Source: Nanobdellota archaeon (lineage in GTDB: Archaea > Nanobdellota > Nanobdellia > Pacearchaeales > GW2011-AR1). From it: a stretch of DNA of 32,316 bases. Under the pieces are notes generated by a model that was not told where the DNA came from, searched no databases, and was given only the letters and a program-made list of their open reading frames with translations. Made by a program: the position numbers and the translations under genes. Positions 17,607 through 32,316 of this stretch are shown piece by piece (within the stretch, counting starts at the first letter, position 1; each line of letters begins with the position of its first letter). Location of the stretch: positions 1 through 32,316 of the forward strand of contig JAHIEM010000051.1 in assembly GCA_018901625.1 (NCBI GenBank). Reading direction: 5' to 3'.

Positions 17607-17688
17607 CGCCCACACCAAGAGTCGAACTTGGAAATCCTTGCGGAAAACAGATTAGCAATCTGTCGCCGTACCGTTGGGCCATGTGGGC
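17607..17688 (-). tRNA. tRNA-Ser (anticodon GCU), class II with long variable arm
   Basis: 82 nt. Acceptor GCCCACA/UGUGGGC, discriminator G, 3-bp D stem, anticodon stem ACAGA/UCUGU with loop UUGCUAA. Variable arm UCC-GCAA-GGA, T arm CCAAG-UUCGACU-CUUGG. No encoded CCA. Confidence 0.9.
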
Positions 17689-19307: not shown

Positions 19308-19988
19308 TTATAAACCTTTCTCTTGCAAAAAAGGCATTGCTCTCTCAATGTAAAGCTTATTAGAACTCCCAACAAGACTAAACCATTTTTTAAGCTCATA
19401 TTTTCCGCTTATCCTTATCTTAATCTTGCCCTTCTCTAATTCTTGAATTTTGTAATTAAAACCTGCTTCATTTAGGATGCTAATAAATTGATTTTTTGCA
19501 GGGCAAGGGCAGACTCTAATCTCAATTCTGGGATAACTTATTCCGTTGTTGTTAAAGACAGTCACAGAACCATCAGTGTCAAATAATCCTCTTAGAACAA
19601 GCAAGCCGAGTTTTCCCTTAGTGTAATCTCCTGGGATTTCCATATTTTCCCACTTAGGAGAGATTTTAAGCCCAAGAGAGTCTAATGCGTAAAGAACCTT
19701 TTCTTTCTTAAAAACTCTTATGTCCACCGCATTTTCTTTTTTCTTAAAGAAAATCTTAGGTTCTTCATCAAGAACGTTCTCAATGAGTTTTGCAACATAT
19801 TTAGCGTATTCTTTATTTCTTGAGTCGAGAGTAACTTTTAACTGGTGCATTCGCTTTTTCTTACCCTCCTGTTCAAAGTCGTAAATCCCAATACTGCCAT
19901 CTCCCAGCATGATTCCTATAAACTCAGCTATTTTATCCTCTTTTTCCATCCCTAAATTAAGCATTTCTAGATATTTAATTTTTTCCAA
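19308..19988 (-). CDS. Free-standing double-motif LAGLIDADG homing-endonuclease-like protein
   Basis: Two LAGLIDADG motifs (FIGIMLGDGSI and LRGLFDTDGSV) about 100 aa apart; 226 aa. Confidence 0.8.
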   Translation of the reverse strand: MEKIKYLEMLNLGMEKEDKIAEFIGIMLGDGSIGIYDFEQEGKKKRMHQLKVTLDSRNKEYAKYVAKLIENVLDEEPKIFFKKKENAVDIRVFKKEKVLYALDSLGLKISPKWENMEIPGDYTKGKLGLLVLRGLFDTDGSVTVFNNNGISYPRIEIRVCPCPAKNQFISILNEAGFNYKIQELEKGKIKIRISGKYELKKWFSLVGSSNKLYIERAMPFLQEKGL

Positions 19989-21218: not shown

Positions 21219-21899
21219 TTATAAAATTTCAACAATTTCTCCAATATCTTTTTTTAGGGAATAGAGCATTGGAGGCCTGTGAGAAACATTTTTTTTCATC
21301 TCCTCTTTCTTCAAAATATCTAAAGATAGAATCTTTTTTGCAAAATTTCTTTTATCAAACTTCTTGTCAAAAATAATCTCATAAATCTTCTGAATTTGGC
21401 CTATAGTAAACTTTTCTGGCAATAGTGAGAAAGCAACTGTTGTGTATTCAAATTTCCATTTTAATCTTTTTAATGAATAATCAAGTATCTTCTTATGGTC
21501 AAATGCAAGCTGGGGAATCTTTTTTACAGAGAACCACCGAACTTCTGAAACATCTGTTGCAGCATTAAGTTTTATTTTTTCAGAATTTATTAAAGTCATG
21601 TAAGCAACTGTAATAACTCTTCCTCTTGGATCTCTCTTAGGATCTCCAAAACTATACAATTGTTCAAGATAAACATCTTTAACTCCAGTTTCTTCTTCTA
21701 ACTCTCTTTTTGCAGCATCTTCCAGAGATTCATGAATTCTAACAAATCCTCCTGGAATTGCCCATTTATCTTTAAAAGGCGTAATACCTCTTTTAACTAA
21801 CAAAATTTTCAAATCATTATTTTGTATTGTATAAATAACTATATCTGCCGTAACAGAAGGTTTCTCATATTTATGGATGTTATCTTCCATAGTGTTCAT
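21219..21899 (-). CDS. nrtR: NrtR-like protein: Nudix hydrolase domain fused to a C-terminal winged-helix domain
   Basis: Nudix box GGFVRIHESLEDAAKRELEEETGV. The C-terminal FTIGQIQKIYEIIFDKKFDKRNFAKKILSLDIL matches the NrtR wHTH signature (FTLxQLQxxYExI...DKRNFRKK). Confidence 0.7.
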   Translation of the reverse strand: MNTMEDNIHKYEKPSVTADIVIYTIQNNDLKILLVKRGITPFKDKWAIPGGFVRIHESLEDAAKRELEEETGVKDVYLEQLYSFGDPKRDPRGRVITVAYMTLINSEKIKLNAATDVSEVRWFSVKKIPQLAFDHKKILDYSLKRLKWKFEYTTVAFSLLPEKFTIGQIQKIYEIIFDKKFDKRNFAKKILSLDILKKEEMKKNVSHRPPMLYSLKKDIGEIVEIL

Positions 21900-21940: not shown

Positions 21941-23443
21941 ATGATAACAATGCTTTTTCCTGGAAGACATCACATGCTAACTAAGTTTCAATATAGTTAC
22001 CTAAGAAGCATTATTGATAGAGGAATTAATAGAGAGAAAGTTGATAGGATAATTTTTGCAATAACTTCTTCAGACCATGCTAATACTAGAAGGAATCCTA
22101 TTCCACTTTATCTGCGAGTTTTAGCTATAGAGAAATTTTCAAGAGACTTGCCTTGCGAAGTTAAAATTTATCCCATTCCAGATGTTAATCAAACTAAAAA
22201 GTTTGCAGAATATCTACTTCATCAAATAGAATACCAGGGAGGAGAAAAACTAACATCTAAAAATACAATCTTAGCATGTTCAACTCCTCCAGTTATTAAT
22301 TTATTTAAAAAATTAAAATTTGATAACCTGCCTGTAGAATTATTAGATGCAAAAAAAGACAAGTATTCAAATTTAAGGCCATATGAAGTTGTAGATTTGT
22401 TAGTTAAGGCTGGAAAAAACTGGAGAACAGATTTAAAATGGAAAGAATTTGCTTCTCAGGCAACTCAAGACGTATATTTAGAATACAATTTAGGAGACAG
22501 TATTCTTGAATTATTCAAGGACTCTTTGATTAATGAAGATGCAGATTTAACAGATACAAGAGATTATAATAGTTATGCAAGAGGGATGGACCAAAATATT
22601 GAGTTTAAATTTAATGATATAAACCCCTTTGTTATTCAAGGAAAAATAATTGATGCTGGTTGCGGAACAGGAGCTTTAATTTGGCACCTATCAAAATATT
22701 TTGAGGAATCAGATGTTATAGGCATAGAAGCCACAAGGAAGTTTTATGAATATTGTAAATTGCAACAATACCCAAACCCCTTTGTTTATTTTTATAGAAG
22801 AAATATATTAGACCAGAACTTTAAAAAAAATACTATAAACACTTTTATTTATTCATCTGTTCTGCACGAAATTTATTCTTATATAAACAAAGAAGCTTTA
22901 AGAAAAGTTTTGAGGAATACTTACAATCAACTTGCTCCGGGGGGGAGAATAGTTATCAGAGATGTTGTTGGTCCAGAAAAAGGAAAAGAAAAAGTTTTAT
23001 TAGAATTAAATGAAAAGGATGGAAAAAACTTAGGAGATATTAAGTCTCTTTCAACTTATGCAAAATTTCATAGATTTGTTAAAGATTTTATCCCAAGAAA
23101 AATAAAATTCAGAGAAAAGAAAATTAACAGAAAAAAGCTTATAGAAACCACATTAAGTGATGCGTATGAGTTTATGAGCAAAATGAGTTATACTGACAAT
23201 TGGCAAAGTGAAATGCATGAAGAATTTGGATTTTGGAATTTTAGTGATTGGAAAAAAGAATTAAAGAAAATTGGTTTTGAGATTGTTGCAGGATCACATC
23301 CATTCAAAAGCAATTATATTATAGAGAAAATGTATAATGGAAAAATTACAATCTTCAAGCAAAAAGGCAAAGACTTAACAATTGTGAATTATCCTCCAAC
23401 AAATATTATCCTGGCAGGCGAGAAACCTAAAGTAGATAATTAG
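21941..23443 (+). CDS. Fusion protein: NadM/NMNAT-like nucleotidyltransferase-fold N-domain with an altered HxGH motif, plus a class I SAM-dependent methyltransferase domain
   Basis: The N-terminus FPGRHHMLTKFQ...IIFAITSSDHANTRRNPIPLYLRVLAI aligns by eye with archaeal NMNAT GRFQPFHKGH...[21 protein letters not shown]. The MTase motif I is IIDAGCGTGALIWHL, followed by DVIGIEA and later SSVLHEI and GGRIVIRD. Confidence 0.55.
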   Translation: MITMLFPGRHHMLTKFQYSYLRSIIDRGINREKVDRIIFAITSSDHANTRRNPIPLYLRVLAIEKFSRDLPCEVKIYPIPDVNQTKKFAEYLLHQIEYQGGEKLTSKNTILACSTPPVINLFKKLKFDNLPVELLDAKKDKYSNLRPYEVVDLLVKAGKNWRTDLKWKEFASQATQDVYLEYNLGDSILELFKDSLINEDADLTDTRDYNSYARGMDQNIEFKFNDINPFVIQGKIIDAGCGTGALIWHLSKYFEESDVIGIEATRKFYEYCKLQQYPNPFVYFYRRNILDQNFKKNTINTFIYSSVLHEIYSYINKEALRKVLRNTYNQLAPGGRIVIRDVVGPEKGKEKVLLELNEKDGKNLGDIKSLSTYAKFHRFVKDFIPRKIKFREKKINRKKLIETTLSDAYEFMSKMSYTDNWQSEMHEEFGFWNFSDWKKELKKIGFEIVAGSHPFKSNYIIEKMYNGKITIFKQKGKDLTIVNYPPTNIILAGEKPKVDN

Positions 23444-23885
23444 TTCTTGCCCAATCCTTTATTTGTTCTGCTAAACTTTCTAAAGAATAAACAATTTTAA
23501 TCTCAGGTCTTTCAAGTCTTGTTTGAATTTCCACATCTCTTCTTCTTACATACCCTGCATGAACTCCTATGAATAGAGGCTTTTTACCTGTGCTTTGTTT
23601 TCCCAATTCATACAGCGTTATAGGGCAAAGTGTCTCTTTTGGAAACCAGAAAGAAACTGCACTTGCTTTTGCTAGATGATTGTATTCCCAATTTATTTGT
23701 TCTTCTTCAATATTTAGATTGTCTGTTGAAAAATGTTTTCTTTTCGGATTTAAAATAACTAAATTAGTCTCTTTAAGGAGCCTAGCCAAATCAGGTTGCC
23801 AGATTGGACAGTTACTAATGCCACCAGCTAAAAACAAAGACATTTCTTGACCTTCATAAACTTCTGGACATTCTATATATTTCAT
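23427..23885 (-). CDS. Nucleoside 2-deoxyribosyltransferase-like (Rossmann-like N-glycosidase superfamily) protein
   Basis: 152 aa. SLFLAGGISNCPIWQ (nucleotide-binding start), ...EQINWEYNHL...VSFWFPKETLCPITLYELG is typical of the Nuc_deoxyribosyltransferase-like families. Motif-level call. Confidence 0.5.
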   Translation of the reverse strand: MKYIECPEVYEGQEMSLFLAGGISNCPIWQPDLARLLKETNLVILNPKRKHFSTDNLNIEEEQINWEYNHLAKASAVSFWFPKETLCPITLYELGKQSTGKKPLFIGVHAGYVRRRDVEIQTRLERPEIKIVYSLESLAEQIKDWARTNYLL

Positions 23886-23892
23886 ATTAGTT

Positions 23893-25557
23893 TTATCTTT
23901 TGTATTTTTGGGTTACAATCTTTTTTATTAGAGTTAATCCATAAAATTTCTTGTTTTCTTTTGGAAAATCTTCTCTATAATGACAAGCTCTTGTTTCTTT
24001 TCTTGCAAGAGCACTTTCTACAATTGCTAATGCAACCTCTGCAATGTTTCTTACTTCCAAAAAGTCTTTTTCTATTTTATAATTCCAATAATATTCATTT
24101 ATGTCTTTTTTTAATGCAAGAAGTACTTCTCTTGCAGCAGTTAGTCTTTCTTTGTTTCTGGCAATTCCACATAAAGAAGTCATTGTCTTTCTTATTGTTT
24201 CCCAATAATATTCAATTGTTGCTTTGTCTTTTATATGCTGATTAGTTGTTGATTTCCATATGGGAATCTTTATTTCTTCTTTGGAATTTTTATTGTCTTT
24301 GTTAAGGAAATGTTTTGCAGCTAACCTGCCGAATAAAATACATTCTGGAGCAGAATTACTTGCAAGTCTTGTTGCACCATGCAATCCTGTATATGAGACT
24401 TCTCCGATAAAATAACAGTCTTCAATACTTGTTTCACTATTTTCTCCAACCAAAACTCCTCCATTAGAATAGTGTTCTGCATAAACAACTGGGACTGATT
24501 CTTTAATTAAATCTATGCCTTTAGATAAACAAAATTCATAGGAATTTTTAAAATCCTGCTTTAATCTTTCAGACTCAATTTTTGTACAGTCAAGCCAGAT
24601 ATTTTTTAATTTGTTTTTTTTCATTTCCATATCTTCAGCTCTTGATACAACATCTCTTGTTGCTTTTGAACCAAGAGGGTCATATTTTAAAACGAAATCT
24701 TCTTTTGAATCTTTATCAAGTTTGAGAAAAGCTCCTGCTCCCCTTAGTGCTTCTGTTAATAAAAATCTTCTTTCACTTTCATTAGTAAGGCATGGGTCAT
24801 AAAATACAGTTGGGTGAAATTGTATAAATTCCATATTTGCAAGAGGCAAACCAATTCTATATGCCATCGCAAATCCATCTCCAGATGCAATATCTTGATT
24901 AGAAGTATACAAGAAAACTTTTCCCAAACCTCCTGTTGCAATGAATGTACTATCACAGCTTATTGTTTTAATATCATCTTCATTTATATCATAAATATAA
25001 AAACCTAGACATCTATCTTTTCCTTTAGTTTTAAAAAATTTATTTTTTGTTATCAAATCTATTGCTACATGGTTTTCATATAATTTAATATTTGGATGAT
25101 TTTTTACTAATTTTGTTAAAATATCCATTATTGCTTTTCCAGTTGTATCTTTAACATGAAATATTCTGTTGGTAGAATGTCCTCCTTCCCTATGCAAGTC
25201 ATATTCATTATTTATTTTATCAAATTCAACTCCCTTTTTTTCAAGCCATTGGATTACTTCTGGATAGAATTTTTCTGCGCAAAATTTAACTATTTTTTTA
25301 TTATTCAAAAACTTTCCTGCTTTTAATGTATCATCAATATGTTTTTCAAAAGAGTCTCCAGCAATTGGTTTTCCATTTTTTAATGGAATTGCAGTTAATC
25401 CGCCTGCTGCAAGATAACTATTAGAATCTTCTTGCAATTTTTTTTTAACAAATAACGCAACTTTTTTACCAGAATCAGCAATCTCTAAAGCAATAGCACA
25501 TCCAGCAAGCCCGCCTCCTATAATTCCACAATCAGTTTTTAAAAAAATATTTTTCAT
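23893..25557 (-). CDS. nadB: L-aspartate oxidase-type FAD flavoprotein
   Basis: FAD dinucleotide fold DCGIIGGGLAGCAIALEIA, FIATGGLG, FIQFHPT, EHYSNGGV, and GEVSYTGLHGATRLASNSAPECILFG (NadB/SdhA signature); 554 aa. Confidence 0.75.
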   Translation of the reverse strand: MKNIFLKTDCGIIGGGLAGCAIALEIADSGKKVALFVKKKLQEDSNSYLAAGGLTAIPLKNGKPIAGDSFEKHIDDTLKAGKFLNNKKIVKFCAEKFYPEVIQWLEKKGVEFDKINNEYDLHREGGHSTNRIFHVKDTTGKAIMDILTKLVKNHPNIKLYENHVAIDLITKNKFFKTKGKDRCLGFYIYDINEDDIKTISCDSTFIATGGLGKVFLYTSNQDIASGDGFAMAYRIGLPLANMEFIQFHPTVFYDPCLTNESERRFLLTEALRGAGAFLKLDKDSKEDFVLKYDPLGSKATRDVVSRAEDMEMKKNKLKNIWLDCTKIESERLKQDFKNSYEFCLSKGIDLIKESVPVVYAEHYSNGGVLVGENSETSIEDCYFIGEVSYTGLHGATRLASNSAPECILFGRLAAKHFLNKDNKNSKEEIKIPIWKSTTNQHIKDKATIEYYWETIRKTMTSLCGIARNKERLTAAREVLLALKKDINEYYWNYKIEKDFLEVRNIAEVALAIVESALARKETRACHYREDFPKENKKFYGLTLIKKIVTQKYKR

Positions 25558-25558
25558 A

Positions 25559-26386
25559 TTAGTTCGGGGTAATCACCCTTAATGGGTTTTTACTTAATTT
25601 TATTTCGAGCCGCGAGTCTCTAGGTAAATCAAATTCTTTTGTATCTATAGAAAATTTTCCTTCATGCCCTTTGTAATCTATTCTAACATAACCTGCTTTT
25701 CCTTGCCCAATAATTCCTGAATAGGGTAGCAATGTTCTAAACTCAAAATATGGGTTGCTTCTTGAATATGTTTTAAATGCAGCAGGCCATGCACTTGAAC
25801 CTGTTCCAGTTACAATAACAATTCCAGAACCACTTTGAGTTTCTTGTTTAGTTAATCCACTTTCTGCATCTAAAAACATTAGATTGTACTTTGCAAGTTT
25901 ATCAAATCTTAATCTTTCTCCTACACATGTTTCATTAGAAGCTCTTCCTGCGAATTTACCATCAAGATAAACATCTTGCCTTTGCCATTCTTCAATTTTA
26001 TATTTGCCTGAGAGAAAAAGTTCAAGAGCTTTTTCAACATCTTTTTGGCAAAGGGCTCCTGCGCTTCTTGAATCTGTTCTTAAGTTTAATTGGATAATAT
26101 CTAAGTTATATGCTGCCACAGCAATAACTGTTCCATCTCCTCCTGCTGAAATTACAGCATCATAACCTCTGAGAAGTTCTTCAGAAAGTTCTTTTCTTGT
26201 TACTATATCAACTTGGGTTCCAGCTTTCTTTAATATTTCCTCTATTCTTCTTAAACTTTCATTATGGCTCTTATGACTTTCATTTATAACTTCACTTTTA
26301 TGATTTCCATTATAATAATATTCAAGAGCAGACATTTTTCTTACAACAAGTATTTTTTTAAAAGCCATTTTAAATTTCCTTCTCAA
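25559..26386 (-). CDS. nadK: NAD kinase
   Basis: GGDGT motif (ISAGGDGTVIAVAAY) and the C-terminal VTGTGSSAWPAAF (equivalent to TPTGSTAY). The start could be the internal M at 26368. Confidence 0.75.
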   Translation of the reverse strand: MRRKFKMAFKKILVVRKMSALEYYYNGNHKSEVINESHKSHNESLRRIEEILKKAGTQVDIVTRKELSEELLRGYDAVISAGGDGTVIAVAAYNLDIIQLNLRTDSRSAGALCQKDVEKALELFLSGKYKIEEWQRQDVYLDGKFAGRASNETCVGERLRFDKLAKYNLMFLDAESGLTKQETQSGSGIVIVTGTGSSAWPAAFKTYSRSNPYFEFRTLLPYSGIIGQGKAGYVRIDYKGHEGKFSIDTKEFDLPRDSRLEIKLSKNPLRVITPN

Positions 26387-26460: not shown

Positions 26461-26994
26461 TCATTTTATCTCCCCCAATCTTCGCAATTTTTCATACATT
26501 ACTAGATAAGCTGTCTTTGACCCTTCTATTCTGTTGTCAATCACCATTTTATAAACCTCATCAAAAGAGAGAGTTACTACTTGAATTTTCTCTGTATCTT
26601 CTAATCTTTGATTCACCTTTTTTCCCGGACCATGTGCTAAAAATAAATAGACTCTTTCAGTATCATGGCCGTCTGTTGAGATAAGCCTCCCAAGTGATTC
26701 AACTTGATTAGGTTTAATTCTAATTCCACATTCTTCTTCAAGACCCTCAATCATTACTTCCAAAGGACTTAATCCCTCTTTATCAAGTGTTTCAGCAGGT
26801 AATGCTAAAATCTCTTCTTCCATTGCAGGCCTGAATTGTTTAGTGAGATAAACCTGATCTTTTTCATCAATATATAACATAACTGCTGCATCTTTTGATA
26901 CAACTACATCATATTTTTTCCCTTCATGAAACCTGTGAACAAGAGTTAGGTACCCTCTGTAAACAACAATATCTCGCGGTTTAGTTTTTACCAT
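26461..26994 (-). CDS. Nudix hydrolase, ADP-ribose pyrophosphatase-like
   Basis: LPAETLDKEGLSPLEVMIEGLEEECGI is a Nudix box in the NudF-like context. The start is set at ATG 26994, 1 nt after the nadD stop; the track ORF extends to 27051 inside nadD. Confidence 0.6.
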   Translation of the reverse strand: MVKTKPRDIVVYRGYLTLVHRFHEGKKYDVVVSKDAAVMLYIDEKDQVYLTKQFRPAMEEEILALPAETLDKEGLSPLEVMIEGLEEECGIRIKPNQVESLGRLISTDGHDTERVYLFLAHGPGKKVNQRLEDTEKIQVVTLSFDEVYKMVIDNRIEGSKTAYLVMYEKLRRLGEIK

Positions 26995-26995
26995 T

Positions 26996-27559
26996 TTATT
27001 TAAGATAAAATTCTCCATTTTTAATATATTCTTCAACTTTATCTGGAACAAGCCCTTTAATTAAAATTCCTTTTTCAAGATTATCTCTAATTTGATTTGA
27101 AGATATTTTATTATTTATATTCAAAATCTCCCGAATATCAATTCCTAAATCATTAGAGAAATCAAAACCAGGTCTTTTTATTAAAATAAATTTAACACTA
27201 TTCTTTAAATATTCAAAGTCATGCCATTTTTCTAAATCCTTTATATTATCTGCTCCCATGACAAAATAAAAATCATGAGGAAATTCTCTTTTAAACCAGG
27301 ATATTGTTTTTGAAGTATAGCTTTTTTTATCTGGATCTAATTCTACCCCTATTACTTTAACTAAAGGATTATTTTCAATAGCTAAATTAATCATCTTCAT
27401 TCTAACTTCTCCACTTACTAGTTTTTTATTAAATGCATGATTCCCACAAGGAATAAGCCAAACTTGGTCCACTATTTGCTTTGATAGTAATTCATTTACT
27501 ATTTGCAAATGCCCGTTGTGAATTGGATTAAAACTTCCTCCAAATAATGCAACTTTCAT
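26996..27559 (-). CDS. nadD: Nicotinate-nucleotide adenylyltransferase, bacterial NadD type
   Basis: ALFGGSFNPIHNGHL (GxFxPxHxGH), later FVMGADN and the ISSNQIR (ISST-like) motif; 187 aa. Confidence 0.85.
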   Translation of the reverse strand: MKVALFGGSFNPIHNGHLQIVNELLSKQIVDQVWLIPCGNHAFNKKLVSGEVRMKMINLAIENNPLVKVIGVELDPDKKSYTSKTISWFKREFPHDFYFVMGADNIKDLEKWHDFEYLKNSVKFILIKRPGFDFSNDLGIDIREILNINNKISSNQIRDNLEKGILIKGLVPDKVEEYIKNGEFYLK

Positions 27560-28260
27560 TTTTCCTCCCGAACATAAAAAGTTGGGGGCATTTTTCGCTT
27601 ATGTTCTGAATATCTCACTCTATTCTGGATTGCATCATAAACTTTCCCTTTTGTTATCTCTCCATTTAATACAGCATCAATTTCTTTGTAACTCGCTCCA
27701 ATTTCTCCCTCATCCGTTTGCCCCTCAAAAAGTTCTGCAGAAGGTTTTCTGTCTATTATTTTTTTAGGTATTCCTAAAATTTTAGCTACTTCAAAGATTT
27801 TTGTTTTGTAGATATCTGCTATTGGTTCAATATCACAACCACCATCTCCATATTTTGTAAAATATCCTATTTCAATTTCAGTTTTGTTGCTTGTTCCTAC
27901 CACTATTCCGTTTAGTTGATTTGCAAAACTGTACAAAATTATCATTCTTGTTCTTGCCATTATGTTTCCTAGGCTTACTTTATCAAATTTGTAATAATTG
28001 AATTTATCAACTATCTCTTTGATATTTATTTCTTTGTTCTCTATCCCAAGATAATCTGTAACAAGTTTTCCGTCTTCTGTACTCTGTGCTCCATATGGAA
28101 TTAAAATTCCAAGAACATTTTCCTTGCCTACTGCCCTTACGCATAGGGCAGCGACTACCGCACTGTCAATTCCACCAGATACCCCGATTATTGCTTTTTT
28201 GTTTCCTAGGTATTCTCTAAGTTTCAATGTTATTTTTTCAATTACTTCTTCGTGCATCAT
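27556..28260 (-). CDS. nadE: NH3-dependent NAD+ synthetase
   Basis: PP-loop GVSGGIDSAVVAAL, GTSNKTEIEIGYFTKYGDGG, and EEKPSAEL-like PSAELFEGQTDEGE. The start at ATG 28260 forms an ATGA overlap with the upstream stop. Confidence 0.85.
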   Translation of the reverse strand: MMHEEVIEKITLKLREYLGNKKAIIGVSGGIDSAVVAALCVRAVGKENVLGILIPYGAQSTEDGKLVTDYLGIENKEINIKEIVDKFNYYKFDKVSLGNIMARTRMIILYSFANQLNGIVVGTSNKTEIEIGYFTKYGDGGCDIEPIADIYKTKIFEVAKILGIPKKIIDRKPSAELFEGQTDEGEIGASYKEIDAVLNGEITKGKVYDAIQNRVRYSEHKRKMPPTFYVREEK

Positions 28261-29195
28261 TTTCCTTCTTCCTCCAAAAAATAAGGTGTTAAGCAAAGCC
28301 TGCAAAATTTCCCCCTAATAAAAGGCTCAATTGCCTCTGTTGTATTCGCCAATAAAATAGCATCACTTGCTTTCAAGCTAAGATTATGTTTCTCATTTAG
28401 ACTATTGACTATTTTTTCCTGAATTGGCTTGTATTTTTTGTATAACTCCTGTGGCTTTATATTGTCCAAGACTTTTTCAGTTACAACTAAAGAAAAGATA
28501 TTTTTGAACCATTTATTTCCAATTAATGTTTCTAGAGGCTCTTTTGTAAAAGCAAAACCAGCCCTGTAATAATACATTCCAAAAGGTTTTGACATTGAAG
28601 CCATAACTGCAATTATATTTGGATAGCCAACATCAAAAACATGCTCTTGTGTTAATCCAACATAAGCAAGGTCATACACTACCCTATGATATTTACATAT
28701 ATTCTTTACGAACTCATTTGGAATTATATTCCCATCTCTTCCAGAAGGGTTTGAAATAAAAAATATGCCTGGCTCTAATTTTGAAAAATCCTCATTTTCA
28801 TCAACTTTCTTTATTTTTATTCCTATTCTTACTGCATACTCTTTATAGCCTTCATACTCTTCATTGAGTGTATATATCTGAATATCTGGCTCTTTGCATT
28901 TTAATTCCACAAGAAAGTGAAAAATTCCCTGCCTTGAGCCCTCTGTGAAATACTTAAATGGAAAATTCTTTAACCCAGGAACAAGTTTTTTATGATATTC
29001 TATAAATTTCTCTATTGCTGGAAGATGAAAGTTATCCAATCCTGGATTTATTGAGCTAAGAAAAACTTTATGCGGGTAATTTTTAACAACTCTGTCTATG
29101 ATTTTTCTTATTTCAGGAAAATAATAACAATAAACTGTCTTTGTTGCTTTTATTTTTTCTTCTCTTTCAATTATTTTTTGTTTTTGTTTTTTCAT
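28257..29195 (-). CDS. Short aminotransferase class I/II-like (PLP fold type I) protein, function unknown
   Basis: FISNPSGRDGNII (equivalent to NPxNPTG), YDLAYVGL (equivalent to DEAY), and ASMSKPFGMYYYRAGFAF (equivalent to SxSKxxGxxGxRxG, the PLP lysine). At 312 aa it is shorter than typical aminotransferases. Confidence 0.5.
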   Translation of the reverse strand: MKKQKQKIIEREEKIKATKTVYCYYFPEIRKIIDRVVKNYPHKVFLSSINPGLDNFHLPAIEKFIEYHKKLVPGLKNFPFKYFTEGSRQGIFHFLVELKCKEPDIQIYTLNEEYEGYKEYAVRIGIKIKKVDENEDFSKLEPGIFFISNPSGRDGNIIPNEFVKNICKYHRVVYDLAYVGLTQEHVFDVGYPNIIAVMASMSKPFGMYYYRAGFAFTKEPLETLIGNKWFKNIFSLVVTEKVLDNIKPQELYKKYKPIQEKIVNSLNEKHNLSLKASDAILLANTTEAIEPFIRGKFCRLCLTPYFLEEEGK

Positions 29196-29196
29196 C

Positions 29197-30057
29197 TTAA
29201 ATTAAAATTGCTCCTTTATATTGCCAGTCAAACCTGAGATGCCCGTCTGGAAAAAAGATTATTTGCCTTAGGCTATCTGACTTTGGTTTAATTGTTAAAG
29301 CATCTGTTAAGCACAGATTCTGCCCGTTTAAATCGTAAACTTGTGCTCCATCTTGCAAGGTCATTATTTTATTTCCATTTTTTGCAATAAATTTTTTTAT
29401 TTTTACAAGTTCAGTTTCGCTTGCAATATTCTCTTTAGTCCATGCGAATATATCTTGGTTTTCAGAGTGTTTTGGCGTTGCTAATTTTCTTATGCTCAAT
29501 TGCTCAACTTTCCATTCTTTAGCTTTTTTAATAAGTTTTTCAACTTCTTTGGGATTATCCACAAATCCCTTTAGAATAGTGCAGCTTAATCTTACTGAAA
29601 ACCCTATTTTGTGAAGTTTATCTATTAGGTTTTTAAGTTCAGGATACTTATCAGAGAAAATTTTCTTATTTCTCTTTTGTTCGTAATGAACTATAGATAA
29701 TGCAATCATTGTTAATCCAAGCTTGTACCATTCTTCCAAGTACTTATTGTAGTTTTCTTCAGCTAAAACAATTCCGTTTGTTTGCAATTCTAATAACGGA
29801 AAATTAAACTTTTTTAAATTTTCCAAAAATTTTGTTATTTGCTCTGGATAAAGGGTTGGTTCTCCTTTTCCAGTTATTAAGGTAGTTGTTACTCCATTTA
29901 TTTCTGCTAACCTACAAGCCTTCTCAAAATTTCTCCAGTTAACTCTTGGTTCTTCTATATTAATTCCTTGTTTTGGAGTCATCTTTGATATGCAGTACGG
30001 GCAGTGTGCATTACATTCTGTTGTTCCTGCAACTATGCTAAATGTTTGTATTTTCAT
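29197..30057 (-). CDS. Radical SAM enzyme, function unknown
   Basis: CNAHCPYC (CxxxCxxC) at aa 15-22, and TLITGKGEPTLYP (SAM-binding GGE-like motif); 286 aa. Confidence 0.8.
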   Translation of the reverse strand: MKIQTFSIVAGTTECNAHCPYCISKMTPKQGINIEEPRVNWRNFEKACRLAEINGVTTTLITGKGEPTLYPEQITKFLENLKKFNFPLLELQTNGIVLAEENYNKYLEEWYKLGLTMIALSIVHYEQKRNKKIFSDKYPELKNLIDKLHKIGFSVRLSCTILKGFVDNPKEVEKLIKKAKEWKVEQLSIRKLATPKHSENQDIFAWTKENIASETELVKIKKFIAKNGNKIMTLQDGAQVYDLNGQNLCLTDALTIKPKSDSLRQIIFFPDGHLRFDWQYKGAILI

Positions 30058-30890
30058 ATTCTTCCCTCCAAGACATCTTTAGTTGTGATTAGTTTAGCTC
30101 CTGCTGCAACCATTTCTTCCAAAGCTTTTTGAGTTGTGTCTGGAAAAACTCCTTTTACAGCATCTTCAATGACATAGCACTGAACTCCCCTGTTTTGAAG
30201 TTCGAGAGTACCTGCTCTTACACAAAAATCAGTTGCAACTCCATATACCACTGCTTCATCAATTCCTGCTCTTTTTATGAATTCGCCTGTATTCGGATTG
30301 TCAAAAACATTGTAGGTTTGTTTTTCAAAATAAACTCCTCTCTGCAGATACCCTGGGATTTTTACTCTTTTTACTTCTTCGACCATCATTCCAATTTCTT
30401 GATTATCGATTCCTGTTGTCTGCAAAATAAACATATCTTTAATTTCTTCTTCACTTGCTTCCCAGAACTTAGGATTTTGCGTTTTTTCAATAAACTCTCT
30501 TGTTTCTCTACGAACTTCTTCTAAAGTGACTTTGCAGGTTAGGGGATTATAAACAAAGAAGCAATCATTATAATCTCCCTCCCCTTTTCCTCCCCATGAC
30601 CCCCTTTTAAGTGTTGTTTCCCAAATCTTGTCTTGCCCGGCAGTATGATTCATGCAGTGATCTGGGAAAGGCCCGCCCCATCTTCTTAATTCTCCTTCTC
30701 TTTCTTTGTATTCCAGATTTCCGAAATGCCTATCAACACTCCCCACTATTGGAATGCCTTTTTCTCTTGCAAAATCAGTTAGAAGCTTTAGGTTTGGCCT
30801 TATCAATTCTGCATCAGGGACATATAATGCTCCTTCTTTTTTCATAAAGTCATATTGTGTGTCAACATCCCAAAAAACTCTTAGTCTCAT
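30054..30890 (-). CDS. pncA: Nicotinamidase (isochorismatase fold) with a large internal insertion
   Basis: VDTQYDF (catalytic Asp), SVDRH and FPDHCMNHTAG (metal site), FEKQTYNVF (Lys), VYGVATDFCV (nucleophile Cys); 278 aa. Confidence 0.8.
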   Translation of the reverse strand: MRLRVFWDVDTQYDFMKKEGALYVPDAELIRPNLKLLTDFAREKGIPIVGSVDRHFGNLEYKEREGELRRWGGPFPDHCMNHTAGQDKIWETTLKRGSWGGKGEGDYNDCFFVYNPLTCKVTLEEVRRETREFIEKTQNPKFWEASEEEIKDMFILQTTGIDNQEIGMMVEEVKRVKIPGYLQRGVYFEKQTYNVFDNPNTGEFIKRAGIDEAVVYGVATDFCVRAGTLELQNRGVQCYVIEDAVKGVFPDTTQKALEEMVAAGAKLITTKDVLEGRI

Positions 30891-32077
30891 CTTCCTCCTC
30901 CTAATCTTAATTTTAATCTTAGATTTGGATTATATCCTCTTCCTGTTTTTGAGATTGGAACAAAACTTTCAGGAGTTTCTCCAACAGCAACTATGTCCAT
31001 TTTTGCTGCTCTTGATTTGAATACCTGGCCAACTCCAAGTAAGTCAAATAATTTTACTCCTAAAATTTCTTCTGCATTTGCAAAAGCTTCTACTTTTCTT
31101 GGTTCTGCAAATCCACTTGATAATGCAAGTTTCATGTTAGCATATCCCTTTTCATTTAGAGCTTTTCTCATGGCATAAACTCCTGTTACATTTACTCCGT
31201 GTCCAAACCAATATTTTTCATCTTCAGTTGGAACTATTATTCTTCTTCCAACTAATTGTGCTAATTTTTCTGCATCTGGGAATTCTAGGGCTCCTTCCCC
31301 TACATTTTCTCCACAAGTATCTATTCGTGGTCCCCATAATCTGTTTCCAATTCCTTTTGCACAGGCTAAAGTATCTGTAATTTCTTTATTTCTGTAATCG
31401 CAGAGAATTATTCTTGGCACTTTAGCATCAATGTGTCTATCAAAAGCTAGAAGAGTTTCAAGAACAGCCCTTTCTCTTCCATATTTCCAAGCCATTATAT
31501 TTTCTAAAACATGCGGAGTTGTGCCCATTCCTTTTTGTCTAAATGTCCCTGCTCCTGCATCTGTTGAAGCGCTTGTTGCTCCACCCTCATAAGCAGCCCA
31601 GGTAATTGCAGCATCTTCATCAAATCTCCAGTGTCTTGCTCCAAAATATGAAACCGGCCTTCCTCTAGCTGCTTTAACAACAGCAGCCATATTTTCTCTT
31701 ACTTGATTTAAATCTACTCCCTGTCTATCATTGGCTTTAGTTGTTTCTGCACTTAAAACTCCTAAATACATTGTTTCAAGTTCTACTATATCCTGAATTG
31801 GAGCTTCAATTAACATAAGTGTTTCTCTCGGAGCATAATCTGCTCCTTCTTCTAAAGCATAAACTCTCCCACCATTTTGTTTTAAAGGAGAATATTTTTC
31901 AAGAACAGCCAGAGCTTCATCTACTCCATAAACTTGCCCTGGTCCTTTTCTTATCATTACCTGAGCTCTAACCCATGGATTGATACCTTCAGCTCTTAGT
32001 ACTTCTCCTGTCCTTAAGAAATACTTATCAGCATATGGCTGAGGTTTCTCAGGTAGACTAAAGTTTGTTGTTTTCAT
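30887..32077 (-). CDS. pncB: Nicotinate phosphoribosyltransferase, archaeal/type II PRTase (QPRT-like fold)
   Basis: At 396 aa its length matches the about 390-aa archaeal NAPRTases. ...FGARHWRFDEDAAITWAAYEGGATSAST...GMGTTPHVLENI... resembles the Thermoplasma-type enzyme (FGIRRMHP...GGADGVS...VGTMPHAL). Confidence 0.75.
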   Translation of the reverse strand: MKTTNFSLPEKPQPYADKYFLRTGEVLRAEGINPWVRAQVMIRKGPGQVYGVDEALAVLEKYSPLKQNGGRVYALEEGADYAPRETLMLIEAPIQDIVELETMYLGVLSAETTKANDRQGVDLNQVRENMAAVVKAARGRPVSYFGARHWRFDEDAAITWAAYEGGATSASTDAGAGTFRQKGMGTTPHVLENIMAWKYGRERAVLETLLAFDRHIDAKVPRIILCDYRNKEITDTLACAKGIGNRLWGPRIDTCGENVGEGALEFPDAEKLAQLVGRRIIVPTEDEKYWFGHGVNVTGVYAMRKALNEKGYANMKLALSSGFAEPRKVEAFANAEEILGVKLFDLLGVGQVFKSRAAKMDIVAVGETPESFVPISKTGRGYNPNLRLKLRLGGGR

Positions 32078-32316
32078 TTTCCCCTCCTCGCTTTAAATCT
32101 TAAGAAATCTCCATCTCTCTGGTCAGATTCATATTTTACCTGCCATCCTGCCTCAGCATACCTTCTTATTAATTCGGTATAAAATTTATCCCCGTATTCT
32201 ACTCCTTCTGGTAGATTAATGCAAGCTGTGTAACCTTCTATTCCAGGTCTGAATTGCTTTGCCAGAGCCATGTCTATTATTTGTTCTAATCTTTTTACTA
32301 CTGCTTCATCCTGCCC
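32074..32316 (-). CDS. Hypothetical protein, possibly N-terminally truncated by the window edge
   Basis: The frame is open from the window end (…GQDEAVVKRLEQIIDMALAKQFRPG...) to the stop at 32074-76, with an ATGA-type overlap with the pncB start. The first in-window ATG is at 32271. Confidence 0.45.
   Translation of the reverse strand, partial: GQDEAVVKRLEQIIDMALAKQFRPGIEGYTACINLPEGVEYGDKFYTELIRRYAEAGWQVKYESDQRDGDFLRFKARRGK

Follow-up and report, generated by a model that had tools for sequence, protein, structure and literature searches.

We analysed a 32,316-nt stretch of DNA from a Nanobdellota archaeon (positions 1 to 32,316 of contig JAHIEM010000051.1, assembly GCA_018901625.1; hereafter referred to as the window), in which a gene for a radical S-adenosylmethionine (SAM) enzyme and a gene for a pyridoxal 5'-phosphate (PLP) enzyme lie between pncA and nadE, two genes of nicotinamide adenine dinucleotide (NAD) metabolism. 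Both open reading frames (ORFs) are on the minus strand, at the positions that an earlier annotation made from the DNA alone (the original prediction) had given them, namely 30057-29197 for the radical SAM gene (286 aa) and 29195-28257 for the PLP gene (312 aa). They are part of one tightly packed minus-strand unit of 11 genes, which runs from a 65-aa ORF (starting at 32271) to a PF15891 gene (ending at 23427) in the order 65-aa ORF, phosphoribosyltransferase (PRTase), pncA, radical SAM, PLP, nadE, nadD, Nudix, NAD-kinase-like, nadB and PF15891. The pncA stop and the radical SAM start read ...GGAGGGAAGAATATGAAA, a 4-nt ATGA overlap with a GGAGG box upstream; the radical SAM stop and the PLP start are separated by a single nucleotide (TAA-G-ATG); and the PLP stop and the nadE start read ...GGAGGAAGAAGGAAAATGATG, again a 4-nt ATGA overlap if nadE begins at the ATG at 28260. 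A mechanical ORF list puts the nadE start at a TTG at 28305, and since the alignments of this longer ORF to the NCBIfam nadE models begin no earlier than residue 16, we favour the ATG at 28260. Both overlaps proposed in the original prediction could be read directly in the DNA, the second one given this nadE start. GGAGG boxes lie upstream of starts in the operon. The two genes are predicted to share a transcript, and to be coupled in translation, with the genes of a complete route from nicotinamide to NADP.

The radical SAM protein (29197..30057) matched the profile PF04055 with an E-value of 4e-15 and 56.8 bits, against a cut-off of 29.5. Its motif CNAHCPYC (C15-N-A-H-C19-P-Y-C22), which the original prediction had picked out, is a CX3CX2C cluster motif whose three cysteines were invariant in 32 relatives and present in 97% of 146 family representatives taken at 50% identity; the protein also carries a GKGEP SAM-binding motif. 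The family is large, with 1460 homologues and 414 clusters at 50% identity with E≤1e-30, and the nearest relatives of both proteins come from metagenome-assembled genomes (MAGs) of Nanoarchaeota, Woesearchaeota and Pacearchaeota, all of them DPANN archaea. Classification with curated profiles and a fold search, by which a known subfamily such as a glycyl-radical activase could have been recognised, gave no clear assignment. Indeed, the protein reached no NCBIfam cut-off, its best match being MoaA (TIGR02666, 59.4 bits against 284), with 51.2 bits against a cut-off of 325 for TIGR02668, 38.4 bits against 180 for the viperin model NF038283 and 39 bits for the PADLOC pVip models. A profile search of the PDB returned MoaA alone (E=1e-5). 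The glycyl-radical activases were rejected, with 33.6 bits against 231-232 for TIGR02493 (PFL-AE) and 28 bits against 131 for TIGR02495 (NrdG), and neither the window nor the families that recur as neighbours in the relatives' loci include a glycyl radical enzyme gene. With both proteins, the searches of Pfam, NCBIfam, PHROGs and PADLOC and the sequence and fold searches of the PDB gave superfamily-level matches only.

An AlphaFold2 (AF2) model of the radical SAM protein, made from 32 relatives, showed alternating beta/alpha elements with a predicted local distance difference test (pLDDT) score of 90.9. In Foldseek, this model matched MoaA, viperin and NifB at template modelling (TM) scores of ~0.67 and 12-18% identity, and all of the top 50 PDB fold matches were radical SAM enzymes. 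As judged from the model, the protein is a member of an uncharacterised subfamily with a MoaA/viperin-like fold. Outside the CX3CX2C motif, cysteines were conserved among the 146 representatives to 49% (C48), 52% (C159) and 86% (C249), while C253, common in the wider family, is an alanine in the window protein. Because only the three cluster cysteines are universally conserved family-wide, we see no sign of an auxiliary Fe-S cluster, and a second, C-terminal [4Fe-4S] cluster of the MoaA type was rejected, its three extra cysteines not being conserved across the family. R156, which aligns with K163 of MoaA, and R264 were conserved in 99-100% of the representatives, and this near-invariance of two arginines would fit an anionic substrate.

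The PLP protein (28257..29195) is predicted to be a compact fold-type-I enzyme of the class I/II aminotransferase-like kind (PF00155, 32.4 bits against a cut-off of 19.7). Its putative Schiff-base lysine, K203 in SMSKPFG, is invariant in 37 relatives, as are N149, D175, Y178, S200, S202 and R211, which bears out the plausible PLP lysine and the Asp/Tyr motifs of the original prediction. The HisC model TIGR01141 gave 35.6 bits against 276.55 and the CobD model TIGR01140 25.4 bits against 290.55; family scans found no his genes in the window. The AF2 model of the protein (pLDDT 91.2) matched HisC, CobD and AspAT in Foldseek at TM scores of 0.63-0.69 and 12-18% identity. The gene had been called truncated, a description we no longer uphold: the family measures ~295-340 aa throughout the relatives, the PLP residues are kept and the model is confident, and the N-terminus is not missing, because residues 39-252 pair with residues 38-263 of Escherichia coli HisC in hhalign. 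What is shorter than in HisC, by ~30 residues, is the C-terminal small domain; hhalign left this domain, where the HisC phosphate-binding arginines would fall, unaligned.

We surveyed 95 species-level loci (designated by L numbers) from GTDB genomes, anchored on the radical SAM gene, and counted NAD families within 7 kb of it. In 38 of the 95 loci a PLP gene is found no more than 400 nt away from the radical SAM gene, mostly downstream (upstream in L089, L090 and L130), and each strong PLP-family match in the fetched loci adjoins a radical SAM gene of the studied family. The two enzymes also occur as natural fusions, exemplified by the 666-aa protein P0341, which is present in two independent assemblies; three further fusions (P0392, P0393 and P0394) are ~50% identical to P0341 and to one another, so that fusions make up at least four protein clusters. 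The radical SAM and PLP proteins are a conserved, uncharacterised two-enzyme module, encoded by adjacent or fused genes, and the PLP protein is, on the evidence of these arrangements, the probable dedicated partner of the radical SAM enzyme. Some pairs have further company. In an Anaerolineales MAG (L039, 8543-12551) the pair is flanked by two more radical SAM genes of 485 and 262 aa, and in L015 (9944-12647) a second, more distant radical SAM paralogue follows the PLP gene. In a Woesearchaeota MAG (L019, 3636-7752) the radical SAM gene is enclosed by genes for 2-oxoacid:ferredoxin oxidoreductase subunits and precedes an Fe-hydrogenase-like gene, and these neighbours could serve as the electron-donor system of the radical SAM enzyme.

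At least one NAD family was present within 7 kb of the radical SAM gene in 62 of the 95 loci, and at least three in 43. This compares, at 65% of loci, with some 10-15% expected by chance, a rough estimate from ~ten NAD genes per thousand rather than a computed null. The most frequent neighbours were NAD-kinase-like proteins and type-II PRTases (35 loci each), followed by NrtR (32), NadE (27), PncA (26), Nudix proteins (23), NadD (20), NadA (17), NadR (14), DraG-like ADP-ribosylglycohydrolases (12), PnuC (8), NadB (5) and NadC (5). A relative with 61% identity, for example, stands in the order NAPRT-pncA-radical SAM-PLP-nadE-nadD-Nudix-PnuC-NadR-(kinase-like)-NrtR, and in Obscuribacterales/Melainabacteria the order is NadR-like, NMNAT-like, NAD kinase and then radical SAM, with the kinase-like gene immediately upstream. 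More generally, the radical SAM gene was found after pncA, nadE, nadD, nadK, NAPRT or nadC. The carriers comprise DPANN archaea, bacteria of the Candidate Phyla Radiation (CPR; Saccharibacteria, Parcubacteria and others), Obscuribacterales/Melainabacteria and Planctomycetota, and no identified carrier comes from a cultured organism. That the gene order is shuffled across at least five phylum-level groups and phage contigs points to selection for co-regulation and not to inheritance of one arrangement. The proposal that the pair belongs with the NAD enzymes, initially drawn from translational coupling in the window, is now supported by a neighbourhood conserved across phyla and by an NrtR gene that is also present.

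The radical SAM gene recurs in clusters for the biosynthesis, salvage and recycling of NAD without being an obligatory part of them. Had the relatives never been linked to NAD genes, the original prediction would have been at odds with the data; the linkage turned out to be frequent, though not universal. As a check for displacement, we inspected 80 loci anchored on the PRTase of the operon. In those clusters that lack the radical SAM gene, no known gene takes its slot among these 80 loci, and the recurring unknowns (protein kinase-like, vWA-like and pyruvate-kinase-barrel-like proteins) occur with and without the radical SAM gene. The gene was present in 10 of the 28 archaeal PRTase-anchored NAD clusters and in none of the Bdellovibrionota or Methanimicrococcus clusters. 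A scan for palindromes upstream of the radical SAM genes of 15 loci yielded TTGACA palindromes in three CPR loci, where they were indistinguishable from -35 boxes.

Several other families recur in these neighbourhoods. PF15891-family proteins, to which the last gene of the window's operon belongs, were neighbours in 17 loci of the fetched sets, nearly all of which have the radical SAM gene, and these genes hint that the recycling of NAD includes cleavage by a nucleotide N-glycosidase. The PF15891 protein of CPR bacteria and of L007 is apparently fused to a Nudix domain, as judged from the ORF length and from phmmer matches to both queries. Several NAD clusters of DPANN archaea, whether or not they include the radical SAM gene, have a trio of genes after the Nudix gene (L017, L029, L056, L072, L085, L163, L214 and L231); the trio encodes a Ser/Thr-kinase-like protein (judged by motifs), a ~330-aa protein without Pfam match and a pyruvate-kinase-barrel-like protein (PF00224). 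In the CPR and DPANN loci L059, L080, L121 and L214, a flavin adenine dinucleotide (FAD) oxidoreductase of the DAO family adjoins NadA where NadB is missing and may be a non-orthologous aspartate oxidase.

Relatives of the radical SAM protein are also found on viral contigs, with 116 of them in IMG/VR; GenBank phages contained no close homologue. NAD salvage genes stood beside the radical SAM gene in 11 of the 44 viral loci examined, and the viral NAD blocks with the radical SAM gene hold salvage genes only (pncA, NAPRT, nadD and nadE), with no nadB. In L241, the block pncA-radical SAM-NAPRT-nadD-nadE lies among genes for a sigma factor, a CCA-adding enzyme, a TROVE/Ro protein and an RNA ligase, and in L259 a terminase large subunit gene is 3.4 kb from the radical SAM gene. 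L241-L243 and L245 are IMG/VR contigs of 60-234 kb, putatively of large phages, on which the same block stands beside RNA-repair-type genes, an ATP-grasp protein and a sigma factor. Some of the IMG/VR contigs may be misclassified cellular DNA, a candidate being L237, which has an NrtR-like gene. A comparable arrangement exists in Vibrio phage KVP40 (L318, 133498-137161), where a QueC-like PP-loop gene, a NAPRTase-family gene and two radical SAM genes lie side by side, 1-2 kb from nadV, in a layout that parallels nadE-NAPRT-radical SAM. Membership of the KVP40 radical SAM proteins in the studied family was rejected (hhalign probability 1.3%), which leaves them as analogues in arrangement only.

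As to the remaining genes of the operon, all on the minus strand, the leader is a conserved 65-aa ORF (32074..32271) without family match in Pfam, NCBIfam or other profile scans, which shares an ATGA overlap with the PRTase gene and has homologues in or beside the same NAD clusters of L007, L079, L083 and L216. The PRTase itself (30887..32077, 396 aa) is a divergent, NAPRT-like type-II enzyme, with a PF02749 QRPTase_N match and 130 and 115 bits for the NAPRT models, below their cut-offs. Its family also occurs in NAD clusters of DPANN archaea, Bdellovibrionota, Methanimicrococcus, Methanolapillus and Desulfovibrionaceae; this operon-type PRTase (loci L157-L236) often adjoins pncA or nadE, and its candidate substrates are nicotinate, nicotinamide or quinolinate. 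The pncA gene (30054..30890, 278 aa) encodes a PncA-like nicotinamidase of the isochorismatase family (PF00857, E=3.8e-26), with a weak match to the nicotinamidase/pyrazinamidase model. It is ~70-90 aa longer than typical nicotinamidases, and the isochorismatase model matches it in two stretches, which suggests an insertion. Downstream of the PLP gene, nadE (27556..28260) encodes an NH3-dependent NAD synthetase (PRK13980, 273 bits against a cut-off of 255; PF02540, E=3.8e-70), in which the profile scan found no glutaminase domain, and nadD (26996..27559) a nicotinate-nucleotide adenylyltransferase (TIGR00482, 149.6 bits against 112). These are followed by an ADP-ribose pyrophosphatase-like Nudix hydrolase (26461..27051; PF00293, and 50.6 bits, below the cut-off, for TIGR00052, YffH/AdpP) and by a divergent NAD-kinase-like protein (25559..26386) with weak matches to PF01513 and PF00781 and the motifs GGDG and GTGSSAW. 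The NAD-kinase models match this protein weakly (20-35 bits), and it clusters with the kinase-like family of 35 of the 95 radical SAM loci. L-aspartate oxidase NadB (23893..25557; TIGR00551, 455 bits against 452.75) and, 7 nt past nadB, a nucleoside 2-deoxyribosyltransferase-like protein (23427..23885; PF15891, E=8.9e-17) complete the operon.

An NrtR-type regulator (21219..21899, minus strand), which combines a Nudix domain (PF00293) with a winged helix (PF21906 NrtR_WHD), is encoded 2 kb downstream of the operon, and a convergent gene for a 500-aa protein with a methyltransferase domain (21941-23443, plus strand) lies in between. The rest of the window encodes a class-I aminoacyl-tRNA synthetase, TrmB, Sua5, TatD, dUTPase, RNase HII, a CDP-alcohol phosphatidyltransferase and a tRNA-Ser; because of this gene content we assign the window to a cellular genome. 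The tRNA, a tRNA-Ser(GCT) at 17607-17688 (minus strand), is the only one in the window, and a free-standing LAGLIDADG endonuclease ORF (19308-19988, minus strand) lies near the RNase HII gene.

We propose, with a probability of roughly one half, that the module acts as an accessory enzyme of the pyridine-nucleotide pool, which would join radical chemistry on a metabolite of the NAD network to a transamination. Because all canonical steps are present beside it, the module would not replace any of them. In this proposal, the reduced [4Fe-4S] cluster would cleave SAM, and the resulting 5'-deoxyadenosyl radical would take a hydrogen from a metabolite that is anionic and probably carries a phosphate or ribosyl group; candidates are a pyridine nucleotide, ADP-ribose and compounds that arise when either of them is broken down or damaged. 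The abstraction would lead to an oxidised or dehydrated carbonyl intermediate; the PLP partner, where present, would either transaminate this carbonyl or supply the substrate by transamination, and the product would feed the Preiss-Handler route or protect it. MoaA and viperin both abstract a ribose hydrogen of nucleoside triphosphates, and HisC and CobD handle phosphate esters that have a ketone or amine as neighbour; taken together with precedents for joint action of radical SAM enzymes and aminotransferases (see below), this chemistry suggests hydrogen abstraction on a ribosyl or phosphorylated metabolite coupled to transamination. A modification of the pyridine ring or of the ribose, the second idea of the original prediction, would be compatible with the modelled MoaA/viperin-like fold. 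Moreover, the operons are rich in Nudix, PF15891 and DraG-like proteins and nucleoside hydrolases, which fits recycling or repair of a compound derived from pyridine nucleotides. In a more specific form, which we put forward tentatively, the module might carry out an undescribed pyridine-nucleotide reaction, for example one in which radical chemistry converts, repairs or recycles a pyridine nucleotide or a compound derived from ADP-ribose that is beyond the reach of hydrolases under anoxia, and might in this way keep up the NAD pool in genome-reduced DPANN archaea, CPR bacteria and some phages.

A number of observations weigh against this proposal. Every carrier is uncultured. Of the 38 loci with the pair, 18 have no NAD gene within 7 kb, including a Collierbacteria/Woesebacteria clade and Anaerolineae; about two-thirds of similar archaeal NAD clusters lack the radical SAM gene, given its presence in 10 of 28; 33 of the 44 viral loci have no NAD neighbour, and the PLP partner was found on none of the viral contigs examined. 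Given such lone pairs, NAD clusters without the gene and viral loci without NAD genes, the link to NAD is frequent and not obligatory. Moreover, for an NrtR operator before the operon, only the 45 nt upstream of the first ORF were there to be searched. Finally, the idea of a nucleotide substrate rests on a fold likeness at 12-18% identity, and the other triphosphate ligands of MoaA are not conserved in the radical SAM protein.

Some of the same observations would be expected if the module had an unrelated function, such as modification of RNA or of a cofactor or maturation of an encoded protein, and merely travelled with NAD genes. The pair without NAD neighbours occurs in 18 species, and in Collierbacteria it is located within the rpoBC-rpsL/rpsG-fusA-tuf region; most viral copies have no NAD neighbour either, and in L039 and L015 further radical SAM genes stand alongside, while the L019 gene sits between pyruvate:ferredoxin oxidoreductase subunits. 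We nevertheless consider such a function unlikely, as the NAD linkage recurs with shuffled gene order in at least five phylum-level groups and on phage contigs, and at 65% of loci it exceeds the 10-15% roughly expected by chance.

Less probable still, in our view, is that the module supplies a precursor or co-substrate, be it L-aspartate/iminoaspartate, NH3 for NadE, or phosphoribosyl pyrophosphate (PRPP) for the phosphoribosyltransferase step. It is true that the radical SAM gene often adjoins type-II PRTases (NAPRT, NadC) and NadE, that the PLP enzyme is aminotransferase-like and that the NadE of the window is devoid of a glutaminase domain. However, the gene equally adjoins NadE ORFs of ~560-680 aa, which, judged by length, are long enough to include a glutaminase (L027, L044, L047 and L079), and Melainabacteria clusters carry it without NadE or a PRTase nearby. 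PncA already yields one NH3 per nicotinamide. With regard to PRPP, we know of no plausible radical route to this compound, and a role as substitute for Prs was rejected: Prs homologues are rare in the loci, but L036 and L080 have both Prs and the radical SAM gene.

We attach a similarly low likelihood to a role in conflict, in which a viperin-like synthase of nucleotide analogues would serve cell defence or phage counter-defence and would have come under the control of NAD/ADP-ribose, given that infection is signalled by a loss of NAD. The modelled fold is as near to viperin as to MoaA, and the weak PADLOC pVip matches (39 bits), the 116 relatives in IMG/VR, at least one of which has a terminase gene on its contig, and the largely episymbiotic lifestyle of the other carriers all point in this direction. 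The prokaryotic viperin model, however, gave 38 bits against a cut-off of 180, the genes are set in translationally coupled housekeeping biosynthetic operons, and a dedicated PLP partner, including its fusions, is foreign to viperin systems.

The original prediction had also considered that the radical SAM and PLP enzymes might make quinolinate or nicotinate from iminoaspartate or another amine by an alternative Fe-S/radical route, in place of NadA and NadC. Its starting point stands, since nadB is present in the window (TIGR00551) and phmmer, run on every stop-to-stop ORF, detected neither a NadA nor a NadC homologue in these 32 kb, and the building of a heterocycle by a radical SAM and a PLP enzyme is possible in principle. 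The route itself is highly improbable, because the radical SAM gene sits inside operons with the complete set of de novo genes: L018 and L020 read nadA-nadC-radical SAM-nadB, L090 reads nadC-nadA-nadB-PLP-radical SAM and L089 nadA-PLP-radical SAM, and NadA is within 7 kb in 17 of the 95 loci. In a relative with 78% identity (L007/L158), the end of the same cluster holds NadA and an ORF of 842 aa; this ORF, apparently a NadC-NadB fusion, groups with NadC as well as with NadB. Profiling against the presence of nadA and nadC accordingly revealed no mutual exclusion and instead co-occurrence within the same operon in L018, L020, L090, L089, L014 and L007; in addition, phage contigs pair the radical SAM gene with salvage genes only, and many carriers of this gene have no PLP partner.

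A full-text literature search found no description of a radical SAM enzyme in NAD clusters, and the subfamily, its pairing with the PLP enzyme and its membership in NAD operons appear to be undescribed, even if the component types themselves are ordinary. Both the biosynthesis and the salvage of NAD are seen as completely mapped, and we know of no radical SAM step therein. Against this background stands a family of more than 1000 members, found in NAD operons of DPANN archaea and CPR bacteria, which of all prokaryotes are the least understood and which depend on scavenged cofactors, and on phage contigs that rebuild NAD. If true, our proposal would mean either a new reaction that feeds or protects the NAD pool or a new NAD-derived metabolite, and it would have a bearing on how symbionts and phages cope with NAD depletion. 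As the proteins are small, the models confident and the natural fusions indicative of which two enzymes belong together, the proposal is directly testable.

Among known systems, the NrtR-regulated clusters described by Rodionov et al. 2008 (PMC2330246) resemble the operon in their content of pncA, a PRTase, nadD, nadE, Nudix genes, pnuC-nadR and nadABC together with an NrtR gene. Since the term 'radical SAM' appears nowhere in the full text of that study, the radical SAM/PLP member lies outside the NrtR regulon as described. The NAD modules of phages (NadV/NatV of KVP40; counter-defence) are similar in that the viral radical SAM gene lies inside a pncA-NAPRT-nadD-nadE block, and in KVP40 itself radical SAM genes adjoin a NAPRTase-like gene 2 kb from nadV; the described phage pathways, however, have no radical SAM step, and the KVP40 radical SAM protein is outside the studied family. 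Viperin and pVip share with the radical SAM protein a length of ~290 aa, an occurrence in phage and conflict settings and a TM score of 0.67-0.68, equal to that of MoaA, but differ by an identity of 12-14%, by the 38 bits against 180 and by the NAD operons and PLP partner of the studied gene, the latter being absent from viperin systems. MoaA is the best match by both profile and structure, with an N-terminal CX3CX2C, a GGEP-type SAM motif, TNG after beta-4 and R156 at the position of K163. In contrast to MoaA, to which it is 18% identical (59 bits against 284), the studied protein is ~40-50 residues shorter, its family has no conserved C-terminal three-cysteine auxiliary cluster, and neither moaC nor molybdopterin genes are nearby.

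For the PLP protein, HisC and CobD are the nearest relatives by profile and fold, with the same PLP-binding residues and an SxSKxFG...R motif, whereas the scores of 35.6 and 25.4 bits against cut-offs of 276 and 290, the identity of 12-18%, the shorter C-terminal domain, the lack of his or cob genes nearby and the radical SAM partner set the studied protein apart. The closest parallel for the two enzymes together may be found in BtrN with BtrS/BtrR and in DesII with DesI of deoxy-aminosugar pathways, where oxidation or deamination at a sugar carbon is the task of the radical SAM enzyme and the aminotransferase interconverts ketone and amine on the same substrate. In these systems, the aminotransferases are of the DegT/DnrJ type and not HisC-like, BtrN has an auxiliary cluster, and the substrates are aminocyclitols and TDP-sugars of antibiotic pathways; no homology of these enzymes to the studied pair was found beyond the superfamily level. 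By analogy, the pair would nonetheless follow the same logic, with a radical SAM enzyme and an aminotransferase working together.

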